A stretch of 64,000 nucleotides of DNA from a virus. Its lineage: Duplodnaviria; Caudoviricetes. The translations under genes were made by a program, and so were the position numbers. The notes under the pieces were generated by a model that made no database searches, was not told the origin of the DNA, and saw only the letters and a list, made by a program, of their open reading frames with translations. The stretch is taken from the IMG/VR virus record IMGVR_UViG_3300025601_000007; one strand, written 5' to 3'. Each line of letters starts with the position of its first letter. Position 1 is the first letter of the stretch. This document shows positions 11,672-55,300 of this stretch, one piece after another.

Positions 11672-13028
11672 TCGGGTGCTTCTGTGAAAAAATCTGTGAA
11701 TCTCTTTTTTTAAGGAAATCCACCACCTCTTGAATACTTGATACTTTGTGAGACATCTCTTTCCCTTTAGACCCTAGATACCAATATCCTTCTGCGTGTC
11801 CTGTGATATGAAACCCCTCCATGCCTACATTCATCGCTGGCTCAATATCTCTTGTATAAGAATCTCCAACCATCACATAGTGGTGAGCTGGATATCTGTG
11901 CTTTAGGTTTCGGTAGATTGTTTCATCTTTGAAATCATAAATCTCGAAGTCGTAATCCGATAGCCCCAAAGACGCAATCTTCTTAACCTGCTCCAAGCGT
12001 TCTCCCATCGTGTAGATAACAACCTTGCCGTGTTTGCTGAGTTCCTCAAGTTCTTTGATTCTTCCTGGAATTTCTGCGTACTGATGGTCGTAGACTCCAT
12101 TGCCTAGTTCCACAACTTCCAGACACAGATTTTCGTATTCGTCATCTGACATTGGGGTCATAAACTGTCTGAAGTCCCCAAGCACCATAAGCAGGCTTTT
12201 TGCAAAGCTGTTAAGGCTAAAGTGTGTGGTAAAATGAGCCCCATTGTGTTTGTTTACAAAATCAGAGAACATCACTCCCAACACTTTGTCTGGAATTGGT
12301 TCCGACAACTGACTTTTGATAAGAGCCTTCACGCTATTTGCTTGGATGGTGTAATACTCATTACACTTACAAATGGTATTATCGAGGTCAGTAAATATAA
12401 CCCTGTTTTCTTTGTTTTTTGAAACGATATTTCTGACAATGTCACGGCACTCTATTACCGCTTTTATCTCATCTCCAAAATCATTGAATATGGTGTAGGC
12501 AAATATTCTTCCTGAGTCCAGTTCAGTTTCAGAAGAGTGACCAGCTAGTATTGCTCGTTTTTCAGCATCTCCTCCAGATTCTCTGTCAAGGGCTTGCTTG
12601 TTTCTTTTTGGAGAAATAACGTTGATGTTTGTCCCTCCAAGATTTTCAATAAAATCAAACTCATTCTTGAAACGCATATCTGTGATAATGATTCTTTTTA
12701 TGCCTCTAAAAGCATGCATAATCATCCACTCTTTGGCATTGTTAATCCAGACGTCTTTCCCAAACACATCTCTCCCTTCTTCTGTTCCTACGGTTTGGAG
12801 TGTCCTTCTTGTTTTTTCGTCTTTCTTAATCCAGCACTTATTTCTGTCAAGGCCTTTTTTGTAAATCCCATCTATTTTTATTTGGTCGGCGAAGCATAGG
12901 AATACCGTTGGTTTTGGTTCAAGCATCTTGCTGAACACTTTTTCTGCCAAATAATTTTTACCGCTACCTAACTTTCCTGCGAAGCCGTATATTTCAACAC
13001 CGTTTAAAATTGTTTCGTCTAATTGCAT
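11649..13028 (-). CDS. Deoxynucleoside monophosphate kinase fused to HAD-family phosphatase
   Basis: N-terminal GFAGKLGSGKN, FADQIK, LQTVGTE.GR, ITDMRFKNE, HSSE; C-terminal DLDNT and MVGDSYTRDI. Confidence 0.82.
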   Translation of the reverse strand: MQLDETILNGVEIYGFAGKLGSGKNYLAEKVFSKMLEPKPTVFLCFADQIKIDGIYKKGLDRNKCWIKKDEKTRRTLQTVGTEEGRDVFGKDVWINNAKEWMIMHAFRGIKRIIITDMRFKNEFDFIENLGGTNINVISPKRNKQALDRESGGDAEKRAILAGHSSETELDSGRIFAYTIFNDFGDEIKAVIECRDIVRNIVSKNKENRVIFTDLDNTICKCNEYYTIQANSVKALIKSQLSEPIPDKVLGVMFSDFVNKHNGAHFTTHFSLNSFAKSLLMVLGDFRQFMTPMSDDEYENLCLEVVELGNGVYDHQYAEIPGRIKELEELSKHGKVVIYTMGERLEQVKKIASLGLSDYDFEIYDFKDETIYRNLKHRYPAHHYVMVGDSYTRDIEPAMNVGMEGFHITGHAEGYWYLGSKGKEMSHKVSSIQEVVDFLKKRDSQIFSQKHPISQEELS

Positions 13029-15352: not shown

Positions 15353-15490
15353 TCGAAAATGTTGTTGTGTTGCAAGCGCAAACATACAACAAGTTGTCTA
15401 TAATTCAAAATTAGATTATAAAATTGACCCCGAAAGAATGCAGGATAATACGCCGCCATCCCTTGAAAAATAAAACAAAACCAGCTCGCT

Positions 15491-15541
15491 GTATATAATT
15501 AATGGCTAAAAAGCCACTAACCATATACAATTGTTGTGTGT
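15491..15541 (-). repeat. attC-like site A (degenerate)
   Basis: On minus, ACACAAC-AATT-GTATATGGTTAGTGGC...GCCATTAATTATATAC hairpin just after the stop of 15545..15832; distal core site missing. Confidence 0.55.
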
Positions 15542-15544
15542 AAT

Positions 15545-15832
15545 TTAATCTAAGTCTTCGCCCATTCTACAAAGTATATCTTTTAAATCCCATAAAACTA
15601 AATTGCACTTGTTCCATTGGCTAAATGTTTTGTCGTAATCATTCATAAGGTTCTTGCTCTTATACAAGTCTAAGTTTTCGCTCAATTTAGCTTTAAGGGT
15701 TTCTTCCTTTTTAATAAGTTCGTGAATAAAACTACGCCCAACATTGTATAAATACAATACTCGCTCTAGTGCCTCTTCACTACCTATTTCTAATCTTTGG
15801 TGTTGGTCTTTTATATTATCTATTTCTGTCAT
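15545..15832 (-). CDS. Hypothetical protein (cassette cargo)
   Basis: ORF in the AT-rich block; a 14-nt tandem duplication (TCATTGTCGTACTG x2) spans its start region. Confidence 0.6.
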   Translation of the reverse strand: MTEIDNIKDQHQRLEIGSEEALERVLYLYNVGRSFIHELIKKEETLKAKLSENLDLYKSKNLMNDYDKTFSQWNKCNLVLWDLKDILCRMGEDLD

Positions 15833-15859
15833 TGTCGTACTGTCATTGTCGTACTGTTT

Positions 15860-15879
15860 TTATACTTACCGTTACCTAC
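15860..15879 (-). repeat. attC-like half site B
   Basis: On minus, GTAGGTAAC-GGTAA-GTATAA overlaps the TAG stop of 15876..16127. Confidence 0.6.
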
Positions 15880-16127
15880 AATGGCTGATACTTTAGTTTA
15901 ACCTTATGTTTCGCCAAGTAATCGCATCTACAAACAGCAAGTGTTATATCATCATAGGCACTATCACAATCAGCGTGCGTAACGCTTGGAACCCATACGT
16001 GATAGTTTGGTTTTTGTTTAGTTCCTTCATTACTTACATAATAGCCATTTACATTATGTAATATTCCAAGCTTTACTTCTTCTTCTTCAGTTCCATTTGG
16101 CTCGTATTTATTTTTTATTTCAGTCAT
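15876..16127 (-). CDS. Hypothetical protein (cassette cargo)
   Basis: Flanked by GTTACCTAC (15871-79) and GTAGGTAAC (16161-69). Confidence 0.65.
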   Translation of the reverse strand: MTEIKNKYEPNGTEEEEVKLGILHNVNGYYVSNEGTKQKPNYHVWVPSVTHADCDSAYDDITLAVCRCDYLAKHKVKLKYQPL

Positions 16128-16160
16128 TTATCAAAGTTTTTAGTTTATAAAATCGCCACA

Positions 16161-16227
16161 GTAGGTAACAATGTATAAAATTAACCTACGGTCGCTATCG
16201 CTTAATCTTATACTAAACGTTATGCTC
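16161..16227 (-). repeat. attC-like site C (complete)
   Basis: GTAGGTAAC-AAT-GTATAA-AATTAA...TTAA-TC-TTATAC-TAAAC-GTTATGCTC. Confidence 0.75.
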
Positions 16228-16310
16228 CATGCCTTAGTTCAGTTCTTCGATTTAACATTTGTAATGAAAAACAAAAAGAATTTCGCCAACGCAAAACAAA
16301 GATAATAAAA

Positions 16311-16799
16311 TTATTTCAAATTAATACTATATTTTTGAATATTTTTACTTATATAATCTTTTGCTGATTGGTATTCGTTAATATCATATTCAAAACTTTC
16401 TTCAGATGCAAACTCTTTACCTGCATAATTATCTATCAAATATTTAGAGTTTGTTATGTCCCAATCAATAACTGGATTTATATCATAAAAATCTTCATAT
16501 AAATCTTTAAGTTTTCTAACACCTCTTGCATCAATTATAATATTATGGTTATTTGGATGATAGCAAAAGGCATGAACAAAATTGAAATTATATTCAGCAT
16601 CTTCATCAACATCTTCAAATTCATCGTTAATTACCGCTATTTGATATTGTGGAAATATTTCATTCAACGCAACACAAAATGGAATACATTCACCACTCAT
16701 CCATTGTTCAATATCATTTTCATTTATTGTGTGATTTTCATTCACAAACTGCTTAAAGTTCTTAACTTTATCAATTATTTTACGCATATCTTCACTCAT
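16311..16799 (-). CDS. Cassette-borne protein with capsid-targeting-like N-terminus and a possible Cys-His-Asp (papain-like) domain
   Basis: MSEDMRKIIDKVKNFKQFVNE; GECIPFCVAL...HAFCY...IIDARG; ATATTTAT 13 nt upstream (16813-20). Confidence 0.7.
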   Translation of the reverse strand: MSEDMRKIIDKVKNFKQFVNENHTINENDIEQWMSGECIPFCVALNEIFPQYQIAVINDEFEDVDEDAEYNFNFVHAFCYHPNNHNIIIDARGVRKLKDLYEDFYDINPVIDWDITNSKYLIDNYAGKEFASEESFEYDINEYQSAKDYISKNIQKYSINLK

Positions 16800-16905
16800 A
16801 GTTTCTTTATATATAAATATTCGGTTTTTAAAACTCCACTCTAAAATTCTTTTTATTTTTCTTTCGTGTTTCAAATCAACATTATCAGTTAATAAATCGG
16901 CACGA

Positions 16906-17001
16906 GAGCATAACAAGGTGTATAAGAAAGTTTGCTATCAGCATTTGTGGTAATTTGATAGTTTATCTAAGCAAACCTTCTCATACACCCAGCCGTTATG
17001 T
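16906..17001 (-). repeat. attC-like site D (complete)
   Basis: GAGCATAAC-AAG-GTGTATAAGAAAGTTTGC...GCAAACCTTCTCATACAC-CCAGCC-GTTATGT; 16/18 arm complementarity. Confidence 0.8.
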
Positions 17002-17008
17002 GTAAGTG

Positions 17009-17449
17009 TTACATTAGTGATTCCAAATAACCTTTTTCTATAATATTTTCCAAACCATTAAATTCTAAATTAGTATCAATTTTAAAAACATTACCATTAG
17101 ATGGTTCAGAATAATAATCAGTATAACCTTCACCAACCACAATAACATCATTAATTAAAGTACTATTTAATAATGAATCAAAAACTCTATGATAACCATC
17201 AACTAAAAACAATAAATTATTATCAGTTCTCCAAACATTTAAAGGTTCTTTATTACTATGTGATTTTTTACCATCAATAAAATTATTAAAAACCCCCATT
17301 AAACTTCTTTTACTCAATATTAATTCATTTATGTTAATCTTTAATAAATCATAATATTCGTCACTTTCTTCATCATAATATTTATTCTCATTCAAGAACT
17401 TACCAAAGTTCTTAACCTTATTTATTTGTTCTCTCATTTCTTTACTCAT
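17009..17449 (-). CDS. Cassette-borne ParB/Srx-like protein with capsid-targeting-like N-terminus
   Basis: MSKEMREQINKVKNFGKFLNE; EPLNVW...FLVDGYHRV. Confidence 0.7.
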   Translation of the reverse strand: MSKEMREQINKVKNFGKFLNENKYYDEESDEYYDLLKININELILSKRSLMGVFNNFIDGKKSHSNKEPLNVWRTDNNLLFLVDGYHRVFDSLLNSTLINDVIVVGEGYTDYYSEPSNGNVFKIDTNLEFNGLENIIEKGYLESLM

Positions 17450-17462
17450 AACATTTCTTTAT

Positions 17463-17482
17463 ATATACATTCCGCTGTGTGT
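17463..17482 (-). repeat. attC-like half site (degenerate)
   Basis: On minus, ACACACAGC-GGAAT-GTATAT just after the stop of 17487..17711. Confidence 0.45.
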
Positions 17483-17486
17483 AATA

Positions 17487-17711
17487 CTAGCCCTCGTTTT
17501 CCCATTTATCTAATATTTCTTTGTAATACTTAGATTCTTTTAGGTTTTTGTGTGGGTTATTTTTCTTTAATCCATTCGGCAACGAACAACATAATCCATC
17601 ATGTCCTGTCATGCCATCACCTGTATGGCATCCACATTTACACTCCATTACAACTGCCCACTTATAAAACTCATAATTTACACAAAGAGTACACTTACAT
17701 GATTTTCCCAT
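17487..17711 (-). CDS. Small Cys-rich hypothetical protein
   Basis: CKCTLC, CKCGCH and CC motifs; 74 aa. Confidence 0.6.
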   Translation of the reverse strand: MGKSCKCTLCVNYEFYKWAVVMECKCGCHTGDGMTGHDGLCCSLPNGLKKNNPHKNLKESKYYKEILDKWENEG

Positions 17712-17769
17712 ATTTGTAATTTAAATCCGTACTAAGCCTAATACTACCTATAATCCATTGCGAAAAGCA

Positions 17770-17796
17770 ACGTATCATAGCCAAAACGCTAACTAC
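17770..17796 (-). repeat. attC-like half site E (degenerate)
   Basis: On minus, GTAGTTAGC-GTTTT-GGCTATGA; 8/9 complementary to the core of site F. Confidence 0.5.
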
Positions 17797-17880
17797 AAGC
17801 GGGTGTAGTGGCACGTATTTAATTTTCTGCGTAATCAGAAGAAAAAATAAAAGCCACCCGCTTTTGGTTTTACCAACCAA

Positions 17881-18384
17881 TTAGGTTCTCCACAATTGGA
17901 GTGTTTTTAGTTCATATGCTACAATTCTTCTAACAATTGCATCAAATGTTTTTTTACTGTATTTACCGTCAGGTAAATCACTACCTCTATTCCAGTCTTC
18001 ACCAACTCTGTTTTTTCTAGTTGATGCAATACAGCCTAGGTATCCACTACTTTTATCTGTTGGTTTATATCCAGAAATTGAGTAATAGTGGTCGTTTGTA
18101 TGTAATCTGCAAATAAACTTGTTTTTTCCTGCCTCTTTAGTGTCAAGGAAAATTAATGCTTGCGAGTCAACATTTCCATATCGCACAAGTTCTTTTAACC
18201 ATAAGGCAAACTCAGGAGCAATATCAATAAGTTCTTCGTACTTAATCAATGTTGAATTGTTTTTCTCACTCAACCTTCTTTTTAATTCTTGGTTGTATTC
18301 TTCATTTGTTTCTACTCTTTCCACTTGTGGATGAGCATCTGTTTTTTCGGGGGCATTTTTGCCCGACTTAACATCTTCTTTCAT
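17881..18384 (-). CDS. Hypothetical protein (cassette cargo)
   Basis: YLGCIASTRKNRVGEDWNRGSDLPDG motif; lies between sites E and F. Confidence 0.7.
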   Translation of the reverse strand: MKEDVKSGKNAPEKTDAHPQVERVETNEEYNQELKRRLSEKNNSTLIKYEELIDIAPEFALWLKELVRYGNVDSQALIFLDTKEAGKNKFICRLHTNDHYYSISGYKPTDKSSGYLGCIASTRKNRVGEDWNRGSDLPDGKYSKKTFDAIVRRIVAYELKTLQLWRT

Positions 18385-18480
18385 CTTATTATTAATTTAT
18401 TTTTACCCACCCTTCTTTTTATTTTTTAGTGCTTCGTGCTTCGTGCTTCGTACTAGCGTTGGTGGGTCATTAATCCGCCA

Positions 18481-18543
18481 GTAGTTAACACTGTGTAAAT
18501 TGCATAGCGAAAAGCTACGCACCTTATACAAACCGTTATATGC
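18481..18543 (-). repeat. attC-like site F (complete)
   Basis: GTAGTTAAC-ACT-GTGTAA..GCATAGC-GAAAA-GCTACGC..TTATAC-AAACC-GTTATATGC. Confidence 0.72.
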
Positions 18544-18599
18544 AATGCTACGTTTCTGCTTCGTATTAAGTTCTGTGTAAAAACCTTTTAAAAATTTCA

Positions 18600-18905
18600 C
18601 TACTCTTGATATAACACACCACTTTCAAAAGCAATTTCATTTTTTTCTAAATTAACAACACAATTAAATAATTTCCACACATTTGTTTCGTTACTTGGAA
18701 CAACAAAAATTGAATCATATTTTCCACTTACTAAATCATAACCATATTTAGATGTGAAATTAATTTTGAATGGATTCCATTTTTGATAACCAGTTAAAGA
18801 TTTTGAACCATCTTCATTTGTTTTTTCTTCTAAGTAAATTGAAGGGTTTTTTTCAAAACTTATTTGACATATTATGTCACCTAAAATAATCTTACCTGTT
18901 TTCAT
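18600..18905 (-). CDS. Hypothetical protein
   Basis: 101 aa ORF in the AT-rich block. Confidence 0.55.
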   Translation of the reverse strand: MKTGKIILGDIICQISFEKNPSIYLEEKTNEDGSKSLTGYQKWNPFKINFTSKYGYDLVSGKYDSIFVVPSNETNVWKLFNCVVNLEKNEIAFESGVLYQE

Positions 18906-18946
18906 TTTTCTTGTTTTATTTTTTCTTGTTTTATTTTACTCACACA

Positions 18947-19222
18947 CTATTTAGTTTCATAAAACATAGCACCTTTTTCCTTAGCGAAATTTTTTATGTA
19001 ATTTATCATTTGTGTTGAATAGTCATTCCCTCTAAATTCTCCATCAACACTAATCATCGCCAAATAAAACTCTTTTTCGAGATTTGGTAAATATTCTGAA
19101 AATTGACCACCGTCATAATAATATTCAATATACCCAATTTTATCATCACCATCTAACTTATATTGTGATTTTTCATTCAAATATTCACGTATAGTTGTTG
19201 CTATAAATTTTCGTATTTCCAT
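18947..19222 (-). pseudogene. GNAT acetyltransferase-like, probably C-terminally truncated
   Basis: MEIRKFIATTIREYLNE then ISVDGEFRGNDYSTQMI..IKNFAKEKG; ends abruptly next to a short tandem duplication. Confidence 0.5.
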
Positions 19223-29618: not shown

Positions 29619-31916
29619 TTAAATTTTGAACCCTGGGTTGTTTACAAGCATTCCAGTATTAAAATCCCAAAGGAAAGCTTTCCCTGTGTTCTCATAATCC
29701 TCTTTGAATACTTTGTAATAAACAGGTGCTAAGCACATTGGTTTTTCAATCTCAATTACTAGTTTTCCGTCAACTGATTCTCCTTCTTCGATTCCACCGT
29801 CTCTTGATAGAGAGTTTAGGCCTTCGACTGATTCAGTGATTCCTCTTTTTGGTAAAAAAATTTCTTTTGAATCAGGTATTACGCTTTCAGCTGCATGAAT
29901 AGTTTCTGCATCTTTCATTGTGGCAAGGCGCTTCCATCTTTCATTTAATTCAGTCTGAGTCGTAAGCCCAACTCTCGTGTATCGCTTAGAAACGGATTCA
30001 TTTACAGACTCTTGATGAATCTGATGAACACCTACTAGCATTGCATGATATCCTCCGTTTTCCATTAGCTCAAGAACTTGAGGAACCTCCATTACCTTAT
30101 ACCCGTTAGCCTCTACTTCTGGGCTTGCTGGGTTTGCGTTTTCATACACAATGAATGTTTTTGATTCGGCAATTTCATTTACCACAACTGGAGTTTGAGC
30201 GTTTTTCAAATAAGTCCAAGCTGTGTATTTTTGACGAGCTCTGTCTTCGCTTTCTTTCAAATCGTGCTTATGAGATTTTCCACCTGGGTACTTTTGAACT
30301 CCTCCAGAATTATACTCTTCTTCTTCGTCAGAATTTACTTCTATACCTTCGGCGCCTGGGGCACCCATAATGTGGTTTTTTTTGTAACCGTCTAACGTCT
30401 CTTGAGGGACAACTTGCCAGAATCCGTCAGTCCCTTCAGGGATGATGCGGGTATGGTTTGTTGGTCTGCGATTCTCACGAAGACTTCGTGCGTAAGGAGT
30501 GTTGTTGAAGCGCTTTTGTGATTCTGTCATTTGTTCTCCAGCACTGGTTTGGCTTTTAAGGAAATCGTCAATCTGCCTCATGCAGTCTTTAACTGTATCT
30601 CCTTCTCCAGCTCCATATTGCCCTGTGTCGGGAGCATAGTCATAGTAATCAGTGTGCATCCATTTGTATCCAGGTATTCTATCGAGAGGTTCGATTTTTG
30701 CACCTTTATACATAACCGTGTCGCTTTTTCCTTCGTTTACTGGCTGGTCGAAAGGTGCTGATGAAGCAATGTTTCTTTTTCTTGTAGCGTTGATGGGAGC
30801 ATCATAAGCAAATCCTCCTGCTCCGCCAGCACCTCCAGCAGATGTGATTTCTGAAACTTCTTCTTCACCATAAGCAGATGGAATTTCTTCACCAGACTCA
30901 GAGTACATAGGTTCACCTTCCCAGTGAGCTTCTCCTTTTACAATCCACTCCATCGTGTCTTCGTGGTCCCAATCTAAAGCTTCGCTTGGAGATAAAACAT
31001 TTCCATAATTGGTTACAAAAAACGTGCTTTGAGCGTATGGGGTGTTAAGCGTGTTTTTTACCTGTTCAGCTGAATACGGCTCGCCTTCGGATTCATTCAT
31101 TTTGTCACCCAAAATGAGGTCATCTTTTTCTTCTCTTTGTTCAGCTTGCGGGTACTCAGCAGGCTCTTGCTTCACTTTTACACGTGGTTTCCCGTTTGCT
31201 CTAGTGTTTCCTTCGGTATCTTGATGATACTCAGCAGGCTCTTGCTTCACAATTGGACGCGGTTTTGTCTCATCTATGTTAAAGCTTTCTGTAATCTTTT
31301 TTTCTGTTGATTCGAAATCATCAGAAAAGAGGCTTGACAGTGTAAATCCTTCAACCACAGATGCAGTTGACTTTTCAATGCCGTCTTCGTTTCCAAGTTT
31401 TGTCATGGTTATAAATCCTATTTCTTTTTCAGAAAACTCTTTGAGCTTCTTTGTCATTTCTTTTTTAAACTTATCCATATTGGCGCAATTCATAATTATT
31501 TTCTCGTTAATCATGTATCCGCCTTTTCCTTCTTGAAATCCACGAAACGCAGCGTCTTCTGTGTTTTTGTAATGCATTTCAACAGTCATAGTTGCAGGGT
31601 GGATGGTCATATGCATTTCAACGACAATTCTTTTTCCGCCAAGAGAAAGTCTTTTTTCGAGGTACGAGTCAGTTTTGGAACCAACTTTTACATTGTACGC
31701 ACCTTCATCTACGCCATATCCATAAGCGTTTCCGTCGCCGTAAAATCCAGCAGGTGCAGCTTTTTGATTATAGCCAAGAGTGTTGAAAGCAAACTCTGCA
31801 GTCTCTTCCATTGTGTTTTTTAGGAAATTATAGACTTCTCCTCGCATCTTCTGTGCCTCTCTAAAGTCTTTGTTTCTAGGGACGACTCCCTTTGGGTAAA
31901 TTATACCTTCAGCCAT
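29619..31916 (-). CDS. Large acidic virion-type protein
   Basis: 765 aa; duplicated VKQEPAEY; EITSAGGAGGAGGFAYDAP; many xNE/xTE motifs; CTATTTAT 16 nt upstream (31933-40). Confidence 0.75.
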   Translation of the reverse strand: MAEGIIYPKGVVPRNKDFREAQKMRGEVYNFLKNTMEETAEFAFNTLGYNQKAAPAGFYGDGNAYGYGVDEGAYNVKVGSKTDSYLEKRLSLGGKRIVVEMHMTIHPATMTVEMHYKNTEDAAFRGFQEGKGGYMINEKIIMNCANMDKFKKEMTKKLKEFSEKEIGFITMTKLGNEDGIEKSTASVVEGFTLSSLFSDDFESTEKKITESFNIDETKPRPIVKQEPAEYHQDTEGNTRANGKPRVKVKQEPAEYPQAEQREEKDDLILGDKMNESEGEPYSAEQVKNTLNTPYAQSTFFVTNYGNVLSPSEALDWDHEDTMEWIVKGEAHWEGEPMYSESGEEIPSAYGEEEVSEITSAGGAGGAGGFAYDAPINATRKRNIASSAPFDQPVNEGKSDTVMYKGAKIEPLDRIPGYKWMHTDYYDYAPDTGQYGAGEGDTVKDCMRQIDDFLKSQTSAGEQMTESQKRFNNTPYARSLRENRRPTNHTRIIPEGTDGFWQVVPQETLDGYKKNHIMGAPGAEGIEVNSDEEEEYNSGGVQKYPGGKSHKHDLKESEDRARQKYTAWTYLKNAQTPVVVNEIAESKTFIVYENANPASPEVEANGYKVMEVPQVLELMENGGYHAMLVGVHQIHQESVNESVSKRYTRVGLTTQTELNERWKRLATMKDAETIHAAESVIPDSKEIFLPKRGITESVEGLNSLSRDGGIEEGESVDGKLVIEIEKPMCLAPVYYKVFKEDYENTGKAFLWDFNTGMLVNNPGFKI

Positions 31917-36785: not shown

Positions 36786-38561
36786 TTAAGAGTTTAAATT
36801 GTCTTTTTCACTTATTTTTTTATCGTACTGCTCTTCAGAGATGATGTTAGACAATAATTGTCGTCTCAGTTGTTTGTCTGGAAATCTTACGAAGTCAACT
36901 TTTTCTTCAACTTGAGCATCTTCAGAGAGGAGGTTTTCCATTCTCTCTTCAAACTGCTCCTCTGTAATTATCTTTGACAAGAGCTGCAATCTTAGCGTTT
37001 CTTGAATATTCTTCTTTTTGTTCATTATTTTTTTGTTTTGTGTTGCGTTCTTTGCCTTAGTCCAAACCGAGTGGTTTCTTGAGTTATTGGTTTTCATCAT
37101 GGTTGCTGACATTGAGCCCATACCATCGTTCATCCCATATCCACCACCACCAACTCTTCGCATATGCTCTTTAGTTCGCATGTTACTGTCGTGAGTTCCA
37201 GCCAAAGCTCTATCTACCCACATTTTAGCGGCATTACCGCCATGTAAATCCCACTCTGGACTTCCAGCTTGATTGTTGTCAAAGAATGCTTTTAGACGCT
37301 TCATTTGAGCATGCGTTTGAATTCCTCCGTCCGCAAGGTCTTGGGCTTTTCTTACTCCACTACCCTCGTTACCTCCATTAGCAGTTTGGCCGCCACTAGA
37401 GATAGCGCGACGAACAGTGCTTTTTACGTTTTCTGGCGGAGAAAAAGACTTATTATTATTGAAGCCAAAACGCTCCAGCAAAGCTTCTCTGATGAAATTA
37501 CGAATTTCACCAATACTTCTATCATGAAGGTCAAACGCCTTTAGTTTACCATTTTTATCGTAGCCCATATTTTCTGGACGCATATCAGAGGCTTCAATGC
37601 CTAATGCGCGAAATGCTCTATTGATATCATCTAGTTGGTCTGCGAATTCTTTCACATCGTCTGGGGCGTCTGTTTCGTCCCAGTCCATTGAGTGTGTATA
37701 CTGAATAGGCAACCCTTGCTCTTCCATGTAGCTGCTGACTTGATAGTAGTAATCCTCTATTTCAGAGTCAATTTCTAACTCCTCCATTAAAATCCACTTT
37801 TCTCCTTCAACAAGCTCGGCAGCATAAATATCTGCAAACACTTTAAATACAGGAGAGGTGTCTCCGATAAGCCGCTTAGCTATATCAAACTCGCTTACAG
37901 CCGTTGTTTTTTTTAAAACTCGGTCTCCATTGACATAATATGCCTCACCAAAATCTCCCTTACCCGCCCAACTGATTGAGTCGGGGTCGATGTTGTTTTT
38001 TGCATAAAAATCCTGTTGAGTCATACTGTACTCTGTTGTATTTTCGGTTAAAGACATAACTTGGTCATAGGTTTCTAATTTTACGAGCTTAGGTTTCGCT
38101 GAATGCTTTAATGCTATTTCATTTTCCCAAAACTGCGTGCTTCTCTCCCATAAAGAAACTGCCGTGTCAATGTCATCACTGCTAATCTTTGCAGTTAGCC
38201 GATAGAGAATATCTCCTCTTAATTTTACCTCCCTAGGGCTAATGTGTGTAAGCATGTCCCAAAATGCACGCTCTTCATGCTGTTTAGGATTTGAGTACCA
38301 GCTGATTCCTAAATTGGTTTCATTTAACTTCTCCCCTGGCTTCATTGCAATAAGGCGATAAATTAATGGATTTGAGGGGGTGTCACCAAACCCATGAGGC
38401 CAAAGGCTTTTTATAGACTGATGAAAATCTTCAACAGCACATTCTTTTGCCTCATCCAAAGAATTAGCCTCATCCCAACACCCGCTAGATTCGTAAACCC
38501 CAGTCAAACCCCACTCTGCTACTTCAAGTAGTTCATCATATGATAAGTTCTCGAATCTCAT
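36786..38561 (-). CDS. Polyvalent protein: unknown domain, kinase-like domain and head-associated-type domain
   Basis: AGKGDFGEAY..VLKKT..ILMEEL..DMRPENMGYD..KAFD; IRNFIREALLE; PPENV...QMKRLKAFF..WDLHGGNAAKMW; QLLS.II.EEQ x2. Confidence 0.75.
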   Translation of the reverse strand: MRFENLSYDELLEVAEWGLTGVYESSGCWDEANSLDEAKECAVEDFHQSIKSLWPHGFGDTPSNPLIYRLIAMKPGEKLNETNLGISWYSNPKQHEERAFWDMLTHISPREVKLRGDILYRLTAKISSDDIDTAVSLWERSTQFWENEIALKHSAKPKLVKLETYDQVMSLTENTTEYSMTQQDFYAKNNIDPDSISWAGKGDFGEAYYVNGDRVLKKTTAVSEFDIAKRLIGDTSPVFKVFADIYAAELVEGEKWILMEELEIDSEIEDYYYQVSSYMEEQGLPIQYTHSMDWDETDAPDDVKEFADQLDDINRAFRALGIEASDMRPENMGYDKNGKLKAFDLHDRSIGEIRNFIREALLERFGFNNNKSFSPPENVKSTVRRAISSGGQTANGGNEGSGVRKAQDLADGGIQTHAQMKRLKAFFDNNQAGSPEWDLHGGNAAKMWVDRALAGTHDSNMRTKEHMRRVGGGGYGMNDGMGSMSATMMKTNNSRNHSVWTKAKNATQNKKIMNKKKNIQETLRLQLLSKIITEEQFEERMENLLSEDAQVEEKVDFVRFPDKQLRRQLLSNIISEEQYDKKISEKDNLNS

Positions 38562-38565
38562 TTAA

Positions 38566-39264
38566 TTACTCAATGCCTTTTTTCAAAAGCTTGTTTAATG
38601 TTTCTTTAATTGCAATTGGAAGCTGTGCAGGGTTTCCAAGCGTTTTTAGATGCCAGTTTATTTCATCATAAAAACCCATGTTATTAATAGGGGCACCAGA
38701 TGCTAATGTCCTTTTAATCGCGAGGTCTAATGCTTCTGCTGGTTTAATTGAGGTAGCAACTGAATTAGAACCTCCGTGCTTCTGCTCGTAATCGTCCACA
38801 AGAGAATTCACACTACGTCCACGGTGCATGCCTACAGATGCAGGAGTCGAGTATTGTGATTCATCTATTTTAGCTCTATTCTCTGACCCAGGGTCATGAA
38901 CAGCACATTTCTTCATTTTTTCGTACTCCTCTCTAAGTCTTTGCTCTGCGAGAGTTTCTGTTCTTTCTTTTTTTTTCATATTGCTTTCGTTAAACCCATA
39001 ACTCAATCCTTCGCTTGATGGGACTTCCTCAAATACCCACTCTACCCAATCCTTGCTAGGGCGGTTCCAACTTTCATTGCTTGTAATAAGATTATTTACG
39101 TACTCTTCAAATTTCTTTCTATGCTCAGGAGTGAGTAAAATGTATTCTCCCTCTGGCCATAGTCCTGCGCCTGTTCTGACTCCTTTTGTAAAGTTATTTG
39201 TAAACTCTTTAACTAATGCAAACTGTTTGGTTAGTCTGTTATAGACGATGTCTTTGGTTACCAT
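38566..39264 (-). CDS. Hypothetical protein
   Basis: 232 aa ORF. Confidence 0.7.
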   Translation of the reverse strand: MVTKDIVYNRLTKQFALVKEFTNNFTKGVRTGAGLWPEGEYILLTPEHRKKFEEYVNNLITSNESWNRPSKDWVEWVFEEVPSSEGLSYGFNESNMKKKERTETLAEQRLREEYEKMKKCAVHDPGSENRAKIDESQYSTPASVGMHRGRSVNSLVDDYEQKHGGSNSVATSIKPAEALDLAIKRTLASGAPINNMGFYDEINWHLKTLGNPAQLPIAIKETLNKLLKKGIE

Positions 39265-39725
39265 GTCACCATCCCTATGCCCATGCTTCCTGAATAGTGT
39301 CTAATCGATTTAGGGATTGAGGACTGATACACCTTGTCAAGGTCCCAGGTGGATGTTCCTATCATTGAGTTTGTGGTGTTAGGCGGTTGGTCATCATCTC
39401 CCATTAGGTTCCCATCGTCATCAATAACCTCTTCTAATTCGCCTTCTTGTTCGGAAGATGTTTTCAAAAAATCTTTAATGAATTTTTTGTAAGGAGGTTT
39501 GCTTTCGCCTTCTAGAGAGCTAAACCACTCTTTAAACTTCGCAAACGAAGTAACTATAGAGGCTTTGGTTCCAAAGTTGGTTGAAAAATCAATACGGATG
39601 TAATCATCATCTTTGTCAAATGCTACATGTTCTACACCTCCAACAGTATCTTCAGATATGTGGTTGTAGCCATTGTCCCATTCAGACATAGATTCCAGCA
39701 AGAATTTTTTGATAGATTTTCCCAT
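39258..39725 (-). CDS. Acidic hypothetical protein (SIKKFLLE motif)
   Basis: CTATTTAC 17 nt upstream (39743-50). Confidence 0.7.
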   Translation of the reverse strand: MGKSIKKFLLESMSEWDNGYNHISEDTVGGVEHVAFDKDDDYIRIDFSTNFGTKASIVTSFAKFKEWFSSLEGESKPPYKKFIKDFLKTSSEQEGELEEVIDDDGNLMGDDDQPPNTTNSMIGTSTWDLDKVYQSSIPKSIRHYSGSMGIGMVTW

Positions 39726-52358: not shown

Positions 52359-55300
52359 TTAATCCGCCATTCTATTCATTAGTCTTGAAATTATGCTCTC
52401 ATCTCCTCGTGAGACATCTCGCTTAAAATCTTTGTTGTCCAAAACTTTACTCACAACCTGGTTTTTCTCTTTAAGTAACTCATAGATGTCGATGTCAATT
52501 GAGTCTTCACAAAGAAAAGTCATAATCTGGACGTTATCGTGTGTCGTCGTTGCTCTGTGAATCCTGTCTTCGGCCTGACCCATGTCTGCAGGTGTCCATG
52601 CTTGCCCAATAAAAATTAGTTTATTAGCGGATGTCAACGTGATACCAACACCTGCAGAGCCAAACGTCCCGCCGAACACATTTATGTTTTTCTTTTCTTG
52701 AAAACTGGTGACAGACTCATGCTTTTGGATAGCATTCATTTGCCCTGTGTGCAAAACACATCTATCACCCCACAGTTCTTTTATAGCATTTCCCGTGTCG
52801 ATGTAATCAAAGAATATTACAACTTTGTCTCCAGACTCAATGATGTCGTCAATAAAATCCCTCGCCTTTTCAAGTTTGAATGTCTCCGTGCATTTTTTTA
52901 GTAAGTGAACTTTCGCAAGGAAGCTCATTTCTTTTTCATCTTCTTTTCCTTCCTCGTTAATGAATTTGATTACCTCTTTCTCGGCTTTGTTGTATTCTCG
53001 CTTGGTTTTTATGTCCATTTCCAACACAACTTCGCTATATGTTTTAGGTGGCAGTTGGGACAAAACATCTTTTTTGAGTCGCCTTAGATAAAACGGAGAT
53101 ATTCTTTGGTATAGCTCTTCTAAATATGATGCCCCATCGTACTTCCACCCAAAACTATCTTCGAACCCAGCTCCATAACGCACGCCGAAGTCATGGAAAG
53201 AGTTCCACATGTCCTTATCGAGCAAATTGAGAGGCATAAACAGTTCTATCGGCCTAGATTTGATGGCGGTACCAGAAAGGAGCACTTTCTTGCTTACAGA
53301 CTCTCTAAATGCCATGTTTATTATTTTTGTCCAATCTGTAGTTCTTTCTTTTATCCTATGAAACTCATCAATGATAATCAAATCATAATCGTCAGGGTCC
53401 AGAACTTCCCCATCTTTATCAATGATGTATTGGAGACCTTTTATTCTGCTTTTGAAAGAGTTAGTGTTTGCACACTGAGGGCAGTCGTCTGTAATCTTTT
53501 TCTTGAGGCTGGTGATTTTGCAGTCGCAGTTTCTATTTCCTCCGCTTGAGAAAAGAGTTCCTGTGCACCTGTGGTTGTATTCCAGTTTGATAAACGTTTG
53601 GATTGATTCAAAGTTTATTATATGGAATAGAGACTCCTCTTTAGTGTTGTTTGTCTTCCCGCTTCTTTTGGTTGGGTTGTATTTATATACAAACGATTTC
53701 TCGTGAGAGAACTTCTCAATCTCCGACTTCCAGTTGAGCTTTAGCGATGCAGGGCATATAACAAGAGTTTTTAAGTTATGCTTGATTGCGTATGCGAATG
53801 CTGGAGCTGTATTGTGAGTTACTATGTAATCGTTCACAACAAATGTGCTATCATCAGAATCAACACTTATACATTGTTGAGGGAGCACTCCAATATACTC
53901 AATACTCTCTATATATCTAGACGTGTGATTGGTTGCTACTATTTTGTGTTCTTTTATTTTATCGTCAAGATGAAATGGTGCCCAGTTGAGTTTCACATTT
54001 ACTCGGTACTCAACCCCTTTTTGTTCATGTGTCCTGTCATAAGAAAACACTTTTGCTATGCCTCCCAATGACTGTGTTAATTCTTTTACATCTTCCGCCA
54101 GTTGTTTTGATACTGTGTGATAGTGAGTTCTACTGTTAGAACAACTCCCATCAGTGTCCATAAGCCCTTTTAATAGCTCTGTTCGCTGCTCAGTGGAGCC
54201 GTTTCTGTACTCTTGTGGAATAAATTTGTAATGGGATTTCACATTTAATTTCAAGCGTCTTATCTCGTCGGTGTATCTGTTTTTTTGTCCTAAAGTATCT
54301 GATATTGAGTATCTACTGCAAGAGTGTTGAGTGGACTCAGATTTTTTTATTTTAGCCATCTTCATCCCAGGTAATAAATTCGACTCAATTAAACTGGCTG
54401 TTGATTCTTGGAAATCAGGTATAGACATCGTAGGGGTGGGCGATGAAATAGCTCCATCTCCGATTAAAGAGCCTAAAATAAAAGGATGAATCACATATTT
54501 CTTCTCAGGGAAATTCGCTGGCTGGATAGTCGGGATTTCCCATTTCAAAACAGGCTTTCTACCGCTGTCAATTCTTTTTTTATTTGTCTTATACGATAGT
54601 CCAGATTTTATTAACTCAGCAATAGACTTAACTGTCCACCCTATGCCTTTTTGTCTTCTGTTAGCATCTCTTACTGTCCATAAATGCTCTTCGCAACATT
54701 TTACTTTTGAGCCGTCGTTAAAGGTGACTTCGTATGCATCAAGAAGCCCTTGAGGATATACTCCAGTGACTTTGTGAAATTCGCCATCAGAACCTAACAC
54801 ACTTGAGTCGAGTGATATATCACCCATTCGTATCCATCCTTTATCGGTGCAAATAGGGGTTTCTAAAAACAAACTCTTACCAACACCAGGTTCATCGCCA
54901 AGCATAATTACGCCTTCGTTGATTTCCATGAATTTAACTGCCTGCTTTTGGTAGTCATACGGCTCTATCTTCATAAAACTGTAATCTTCATCGTCAACTT
55001 GTATGCTGTCTGCCTTTGCTTTTAAGGCTTCTCGGATTCTGTTTTGGCGTTCCAAATAAAGCTGTCGAAGTTGCCCCATTTCTGCTTTAGTGAAATTGTC
55101 TAAAGCAAATGGATAACTATTGTCCAGGAGGAATGAGATGACATTTCCCATCTGGACCTCTCTAACTTGAGTGACCCACTGAGCTTTTACGGTTCCATCT
55201 AATTGCAGCACTTCCTCTTTGAACAGCTTCTTGTGCTCGCGAGGGAATGATTTGATATAAGATTGAAGTCGTTTGTCGAATTCGAAAGTCAGGTTGTAAT

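Follow-up and report, generated by a model that had tools for sequence, protein, structure and literature searches.

The subject of this work is a block of small genes at positions 15,491 to 18,543 of a 64,000-nucleotide stretch (hereinafter, the window) of the IMG/VR virus record IMGVR_UViG_3300025601_000007 (Duplodnaviria; Caudoviricetes). We argue, with a probability that we put at about 0.82, that this block is an integron-type cassette array, with no integrase in the sequenced part, in a phage of marine or saline Bacteroidota, and that its cassettes are swapped by recombination of the IntI/Xer type. As sequenced, the array is a cluster of attC sites lacking integrases (CALIN): there are four full sites within 2.8 kb and no integrase in the 109-kb record, so that the label "integrase-less, CALIN-like" of a preliminary description of this DNA is right for the sequenced part.

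In the scheme that we envisage, the mobile unit would consist of one or two genes together with one folded attC-type site, and a tyrosine recombinase of the IntI/Xer type would gain, lose and swap such cassettes. The enzyme would work on the folded single strand, with the crossover in the R' box (G|TT), an event that would leave the start of a cassette complementary to the R'' box at its end; it would be supplied either by the host during infection or by the unsequenced two thirds of the phage.

Architecture of the sites

Along the plus strand, a complete site reads as five variable nucleotides and TAAC (R''), a 5-nt spacer, a GTATAA-type L'' box and a variable loop, followed by a TTATAC-type L' box, a second 5-nt spacer and GTTA with five variable nucleotides (R'). 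This is the attC layout, R''-5 nt-L''-loop-L'-5 nt-R', with R'' (…AAC) and R' (GTT…) inverted at the two ends of S1, S2, S3 and S5. The L''/L' stems comprise 6-20 bp, the spacers between L and R boxes do not pair (AATGT/TAAAC, AAGGT/CAGCC, ACTGT/AAACC), and the sites measure 53, 57, 88 and 136 nt, with unrelated loops. The sites and cassette genes are listed below; R1 is a covariance model built from 65 bacterial integron-array sites only, with no phage sites.

15490..15541, plus strand: S0, partial attC-type site; 18-bp hairpin at 15490-15529 (inverted repeat I7), R' GTTGTGTGT at 15533-15541, without R''
15545..15832, minus strand: cassette 1 gene, 95 aa, PHROG 31081; first ~33 codons inside S1
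15734..15879, plus strand: S1, long-class attC-type site, 136 nt core to core; R'' ACGCCCAAC, R' GTTACCTAC at 15871-15879; from the site finder and inverted repeat I12
15876..16127, minus strand: cassette 2 gene, 83 aa, PHROG 20712; cassette span 15872-16219
16161..16227, plus strand: S2, complete attC-type site; R'' GTAGGTAAC at 16161-16169, R' GTTATGCTC at 16219-16227; R1 44.8 bits, E 2e-8
16311..16799, minus strand: cassette 3 gene, 162 aa from the ATG at 16799; cassette span 16220-16995, bounded by GTTATGCTC / GAGCATAAC
16906..17003, plus strand: S3, complete attC-type site with a 20-bp L stem; R'' GAGCATAAC at 16906-16914, R' GTTATGTGT; R1 15.5-25.8 bits
17009..17711, minus strand: cassette 4 region, two genes (17009-17449, 146 aa; 17487-17711, 74 aa, Cys-rich)
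17736..17796, plus strand: S4, decayed site with TAATAC for TAAC and GCTA for GTTA; R' GCTAACTAC at 17788-17796; read from the sequence
17881..18384, minus strand: cassette 5 gene, 167 aa, orphan
18481..18543, plus strand: S5, complete attC-type site and right array end; R'' GTAGTTAAC at 18481-18489, R' GTTATATGC; R1 35.9 bits, E 3e-6

All the motifs quoted in the preliminary description are present where it had placed them, and the AT-rich block that it reported is borne out by a G+C content of 27.8-30.9% at 16-19 kb of the window versus ~37-43% elsewhere. Its count of at least seven sites was generous, since we count three complete short sites, one of the long class, one without R'' and one decayed; S1, scored there as a half-site, is a full 136-nt site. 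The L''/L' arms of S1 lie at 15746-15760 / 15851-15865, the left one inside the 5' end of the open reading frame (ORF) at 15545-15832, and its length fits the 120-137-nt class of hosts and other phages. The claim that the motif lies 3' of genes was wrong, the motif being at the 5' side of the gene that travels with it; all the genes at 11.6-20.3 kb of the window are on the minus strand.

The 109,119-bp record contains four exact copies of TAAC-N5-GTATAA, each of them within 15860-18538 of the window and at an ORF edge or between called ORFs. With up to one mismatch, there are nine copies in the window against 4.5 expected, which is unremarkable; hence, the signal resides in the clustering of exact copies and in their paired layout. 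Similarly, a generic finder of R and L boxes is non-specific on this genome (17 matches versus ~26 in shuffled sequences), and the true sites are distinguishable from such matches only by the GTATAA-type L box. No Rfam family matches the sites, whether of the window or of the bacterial arrays. As for individual sites, S3 folds to -19.5 kcal/mol on the minus strand versus -13.9 on the plus strand (z -6.0); S4 and S5 have GCGAAAAGC(A/T)ACG in common; and S0, which forms the left array end adjoining a MazG-like gene and is the sole candidate for an array end at which an attI site might lie, has a minus-strand fold of -9.7 kcal/mol (z -5.4); its hairpin core in metagenome contigs has full R''…TAAC and GTTA… boxes on its flanks (e.g. 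L147:912-975).

Other repeats were seen in and around these sites. An exact tandem repeat of 14 nt (CTGTCATTGTCGTA, two copies at 15826-15853) lies in the S1 loop and overlaps the start codon of ORF 15545-15832, and S5 is flanked by TGCTTCG(T) repeats at 18426-18455 and 18557-18568 (TGCTTCGTACTA / TGCTTCGTATTA, 113 nt apart). A mini-palindrome at 53754-53783 of the window (GCATATAACAA-N10-GTTATGCTT) has a left arm that is the exact complement of the R' of S5 and a right arm identical to the R' of S2 in 8/9 positions; a 9-mer match that far off is to be expected by chance about half the time.

Membership in an attC family of bacterial integrons

A scan of ~186,000 bacterial species genomes with the pattern TAACAATGTATA-N20-50-TATAC-N5-6-GTTA yielded at least 120 loci, nearly all of them from Bacteroidota among the matches listed, with the sites lying in same-strand arrays. 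Applied to the 109-kb record, R1 recovered S2, S5 and S3 with the scores given above and nothing else significant; in particular, there was no match at S1 (R1 is a short-class model) or at S4. The same model recognized sites of other phages, namely those at 38874-38941 (43.2 bits) and 38030-38095 (31.6 bits) of the Polaribacter phage P12002L, the site described in this phage as attC1 by Qi et al. (24.5 bits) and the site at 11892-11960 of the Winogradskyella phage Peternella_1 (40.4 bits), and it found a match in 42 of the 121 sampled Flavobacteriaceae species.

In bacteria, this family of sites adjoins recombinase genes. Specifically, the array of Polaribacter sp. HL-MS24 is next to the gene for a 402-aa IntI/XerA-like recombinase that scores 237.5 bits against NF040815 ("site-specific tyrosine recombinase/integron integrase"; cut-off 220) and 213.9 bits against TIGR02249, under the cut-off of 265; in Aquimarina sp. 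W85, a series of 34 or more sites on one strand extends over 48 kb, starting ~700 nt past the gene for a similar recombinase. In both genomes (L146/L049 and L250-L252, respectively, the latter at 948.8-998.2 kb), the recombinase gene is codirectional with the cassettes. The sites in these two large chromosomal integrons are of two sharply separated lengths, 45-65 and 120-130 nt; for the bacterial integrons of the family as a whole, the classes span 45-65 and 120-137 nt. Folding is better on the bottom strand in 147 of 171 bacterial and 11 of 13 phage sites. Judged by their sequences, the sites of the window belong to the attC family of chromosomal integrons in Flavobacteriaceae and Saprospiraceae; that Bacteroidota possess integrons is already on record (PMC8618304).

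The array has a close counterpart in the sedentary chromosomal integrons of Bacteroidota, with which it has in common the attC sequence family, structure, size classes, bias towards bottom-strand folding and cross-cassette complementarity. Unlike these integrons, which have an adjacent IntI/XerA-like gene and ORFs in the sense direction of the attC top strand, the window array has no integrase in the record, all its ORFs are antisense and its cargo is of phage type. The likeness extends to the classical attC sites (class 1, Vibrio), with the same AAC/GTT ends of R''/R', unpaired spacer, L''/L' stem, variable terminus and boundary at R'; the window sites differ from these in the lack of evident extrahelical bases, the loss of RYYY/RRRY beyond TAAC/GTTA and the AT-rich boxes (GTATAA).

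Among viruses, S2 is matched at 85-87% identity by a site of Peternella_1 that has unrelated genes on either side, and sites of the same layout are present in P12002L, in another Polaribacter phage, Freya_9, and in the Cellulophaga phage phi19:3, all of them phages of marine Flavobacteriia. The phage sites, too, come in two size classes, ~53-69 and 134-137 nt. At least 93 viral contigs in IMG/VR, that of the window included, match one strict pattern. Other searches were less productive: the exact core strings of S2 matched only Peternella_1 in IMG/VR, the 363-aa flanking protein gave one weak match and no syntenic relative, and five IMG/VR matches to the strict two-sided pattern TAAC-N5-GTATAA...TTATAC-N5-GTTA (L004-L008) were discarded, four of them being one unrelated coding-looking sequence and one a low-complexity palindrome.

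Complementarity across cassettes

The five nucleotides beyond the GTTA and TAAC cores are complementary across each gene and not within one site. The complementary cores that, according to the preliminary description, bound the cassettes are confirmed at the coordinates listed: GTTACCTAC and GTAGGTAAC pair in 9/9 positions across cassette 2, GTTATGCTC and GAGCATAAC in 9/9 across cassette 3, and GCTAACTAC (R' of S4) and GTAGTTAAC (R'' of S5) in 8/9 across cassette 5. The 5-nt extensions are complementary in 5/5 and 5/5 positions at the window; they are fully complementary in 35 of 63 adjacent site pairs of bacterial arrays versus 0.9% of random pairs, and in 24 of 48 adjacent pairs of viral arrays versus ~1%. 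Across the genes of Peternella_1, P12002L, phi19:3 and Freya_9, the complementarity is from 8/9 to 10/10. This is the trace to be expected from a crossover inside the R' box in an integron array.

Cassette turnover in related contigs

Scanning of metagenomes with 23 nt of the S2 core brought eight contigs. One of these, L147, is 100% identical to 16104-16223 of the window and diverges right after GTTAT; it carries four cassettes versus two in the window and rejoins it, at 91% identity, in 17405-17556. Cassette 3 is absent from L147, with other cassettes in its place, and two of the four cassettes have matching flanking cores (GTTATAAAAC/GTTTTATAAC and GTTATGCTC/GAGCATAAC). Contigs L151 and L154 contain an 84%-identical cassette 2, with homology limits (15868/15871 and 16222/16224) at the two R' cores and with neighbours that differ from those in the window on both sides, and contigs L149 and L153 have one cassette plus site in common and are different after GTTAG. 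In the Logan data, of which assembled contigs only were compared, a collection blind to circles and rare excision products, contigs from at least 24 salt-lake runs in which this stretch occurs end exactly at sites, those from the source lake included. Among these loose ends, the S0 and S5 cores stand in other contexts with other R''/R' extensions, and a contig in run X23 has S5 in common with the window and diverges from it directly after GTT at 18537. The comparison of cassette order in related contigs had been set in advance as a test that could go against an array; what it revealed was differing content with breakpoints at GTTA cores, and no fixed order was seen. Recombination in these arrays is probably still active.

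Orientation of the cassette genes

The top strand of a site can be told from its asymmetric spacers (TAAC-A ... C-GTTA). With the top strand so defined, the ORF to the left of a site is oriented as follows:

Bacterial sites: 96 sense, 5 antisense (120 loci among the matches listed)
Viral sites: 1 sense, 58 antisense (79 loci from the 93 IMG/VR matches to the same pattern)

Within viral arrays, 41 of 43 cassette ORFs are antisense, and so are all seven (7/7) in the window, Peternella_1, P12002L and phi19:3. With the genes of phage cassettes running against the attC top strand, a site precedes its gene, and it is the bottom strand, which folds better, that serves as the coding strand. This antisense rule looks new, and the window obeys its viral version; the window array is an element of a known kind, in a mirror-image version that is, apparently, the rule for such phages. 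Excision has been found to increase when the attC bottom strand is on the lagging-strand template (Loot et al. 2017, PMC5371416). The GC skew at the window is consistent with such a placement but may merely reflect gene direction, and that the inversion is adaptive is a speculation.

Phage CALINs in earlier work

A CALIN in a phage is already a known kind of element. Qi, Rajabal, Ghaly, Tetu and Gillings (2023; Front Microbiol 14:1091391; PMC9892861) described CALINs in 17 phages, P12002L with two predicted sites among them, and these, like the array in the window, are attC clusters without an integrase in phage genomes; when six of the phage sites were tested with IntI1, five underwent recombination, attC2 of P12002L included. 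Accordingly, the suggestion that the window holds an undescribed system is not borne out, given that the published set includes a phage with the same attC family. The article mentions "divergent directions"; the parts of it that were consulted contain no link to the Bacteroidota integron family, no antisense rule and no comparison of cassette turnover (PMC9892861).

In P12002L, attC1 (30003-30061) has the same layout and polarity as the window sites, and further sites of the family lie at 38030-38095, 38874-38941 and 39117-39250, outside the CALIN as published. Altogether, this phage contains at least five sites of the Bacteroidota attC family plus the attC2 of Qi et al.; compared to the two sites reported for it by Qi et al., this count suggests that attC finders tuned on Proteobacteria miss most such sites. 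The attC2 sequence itself occurs twice in P12002L (L015:37201, 29175), with different R' extensions (GTTAGGCAC, GTTACCCAC).

Possible source of a recombinase

Where the recombinase would come from is a separate question. Profiles PF00589, TIGR02249 and PF00239 detected no tyrosine or serine recombinase in the 109-kb record, which is ~31% complete by CheckV. With so much of the genome outside the record, the phage might encode its own IntI/Xer-like enzyme in the unsequenced part and carry a complete phage integron rather than a CALIN, and such a gene does exist in Freya_9, a phage with sites of the family (L013:5004-5139) whose small-gene region encodes a 271-aa Xer/IntI-like recombinase (L013:1381-2193) with 35% identity to the integron-adjacent enzyme of Polaribacter; Freya_9 is a candidate for a complete phage integron. 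We nevertheless hold this to be unlikely for the phage of the window: no such gene stands beside the array in the window, and both the Mu-like Peternella_1, listed as a complete genome, and P12002L, also complete, have arrays and no annotated tyrosine recombinase. The most likely reading seems to be a host enzyme acting in trans. In phi19:3, gp036, located next to the array, was considered and rejected: this 418-aa protein is a phage integrase of the ordinary kind and has no relationship to the integron-adjacent enzyme.

Alternative explanations

Several observations weigh against an integron-type array. Nothing ties the sites of the window to an enzyme, because there is no recombinase in the record. 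Of the six sites, S0 is incomplete, without R'', and S4 is decayed, with mutated cores; cassettes 1 and 4 have no matching cores. The predicted stems of S2, S3 and P1 contain no extrahelical bases, being continuous or interrupted by G:T only, although a prediction cannot exclude such bases; in classical attC sites, it is the extrahelical bases that fix the choice of strand. The sole excision joint, 16217->16994, which amounts to a clean loss of cassette 3, is weak (depth 3, a 23-nt side, 85% likeness). Furthermore, attC1 of P12002L, which resembles the window sites, is the only one of the six phage sites without a verified IntI1 junction (PMC9892861). Finally, homologous recombination between near-identical site cores could give the same breakpoints.

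The last point leads to an explanation without any integrase, namely, that the sites are relics or regulatory hairpins and that the phage shuffles the genes by homologous recombination at near-identical cores. There is a precedent in the PeSL elements, promoter plus stem-loop repeats exchanged by homology, which Arbiol et al. reportedly described in 2010 as mobile regulatory cassettes of T4-type phages and for which homologous exchange at modules is the proposed model. The array resembles a PeSL region in having a stem-loop upstream of each small orphan gene, in its location within a hyperplastic phage region and in shuffling bounded by modules. Copies of one core, 85-100% identical, are present in many contexts, which is enough homology for such exchange; each site, together with a conserved leader, precedes its gene, and the hairpins fold best on the transcribed strand; and the record lacks an integrase. 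However, homologous exchange leaves unexplained the 5-nt complementarity across cassettes (50-56% of pairs versus ~1% by chance), a pattern that requires either that the intermediate be circular or that the crossover occur within the core. The unrelated loops of S2, S3 and S5 within one array make a poor substrate for homologous exchange, and the same site family adjoins integrases in bacteria; PeSLs are not known to have AAC/GTT cores, cross-gene complementarity or a bacterial integron counterpart. We regard this explanation as distinctly improbable.

The inverted repeats of 9-10 nt that flank each gene would also fit an inverton, a segment flipped by an invertase. We give this interpretation almost no credence because the 5-nt spacers next to the cores are non-complementary, the repeat extensions vary from gene to gene so that there is no common recognition arm, 41 of 43 viral cassette ORFs share one orientation and the Logan contigs contain no inverted variants. 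Elements of the IS200/IS605, REP/RAYT, pdif-module and miniature inverted-repeat transposable element types were rejected: the two halves of a site are repeated in inverted and not in direct orientation, the sites are free of flanking target duplications, and neither an HUH nor a transposase gene was seen in the vicinity of the array. So was a reading of the motifs as promoters, since the Bacteroidota consensus (-33 TTTG / -7 TAnnTTTG) is not convincingly matched on the coding strand.

The genes of the array and its surroundings

The cassette 1 gene has 72% DNA identity to gp60 of P12002L. For the product of cassette 3, a language-model look-up points to a phage YunG-like protein, which we take as a lead only, and the product of 17009-17449 in the cassette 4 region is an N-terminal paralogue of the cassette 3 product. 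No matching R'' follows the cassette 4 region, and no complement to the R' of S5 was found downstream of S5. Beyond this end of the array are two more small genes:

18600..19222, minus strand: AT-rich pair of 101 and 91 aa, the latter with a GNAT match; not bounded by a site

These two genes may be decayed cassettes or phage backbone. Apart from the GNAT match and the YunG-like lead, searches of Pfam, PHROGs and Atlas yielded no function for the cargo.

Between the products of cassettes 3 and 4, similarity is confined to the 22 N-terminal residues (MSEDMRKIIDKVKNFKQFVNEN / MSKEMREQINKVKNFGKFLNEN); the two genes also have the upstream leader in common, and these common ends are located at 16734-16820 and 17400-17470 of the window. 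In metagenome contigs, the same ends are joined to other gene bodies (16293-16733 is replaced; L147:803-875, 1704-1786), which suggests either a second level of modular exchange or an N-terminal tag in common. The window differs from the whole-genome sequence in two bases, at 39407 and 39416.

Implications

For a whole group of marine phages, these findings connect the variable regions of orphan genes with a defined system of site-specific recombination that is common with their hosts, and they offer a concrete mechanism by which such phages gain and lose accessory genes. Taking this further, we tentatively suggest, at somewhat less than even odds, that Bacteroidota phages keep a large pool of their own of mirror-image cassettes (attC upstream, antisense), which would be shuffled by IntI/Xer-like enzymes of host or phage. 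If this were the case, the recombinogenic bottom strand would be on the non-template strand, probably the lagging-strand template, resulting in arrays of fast turnover; a cassette crossing between phage and host arrays would land in the silent orientation; and the hyperplastic regions of phages and the integrons of bacteria would be halves of one exchange system. As a rule that is both simple and testable, the near-absolute difference in orientation between the arrays of viruses and those of bacteria bears on the control of attC folding by replication and transcription, on the mixing of phage and host pools and on the origin of the cassettes.

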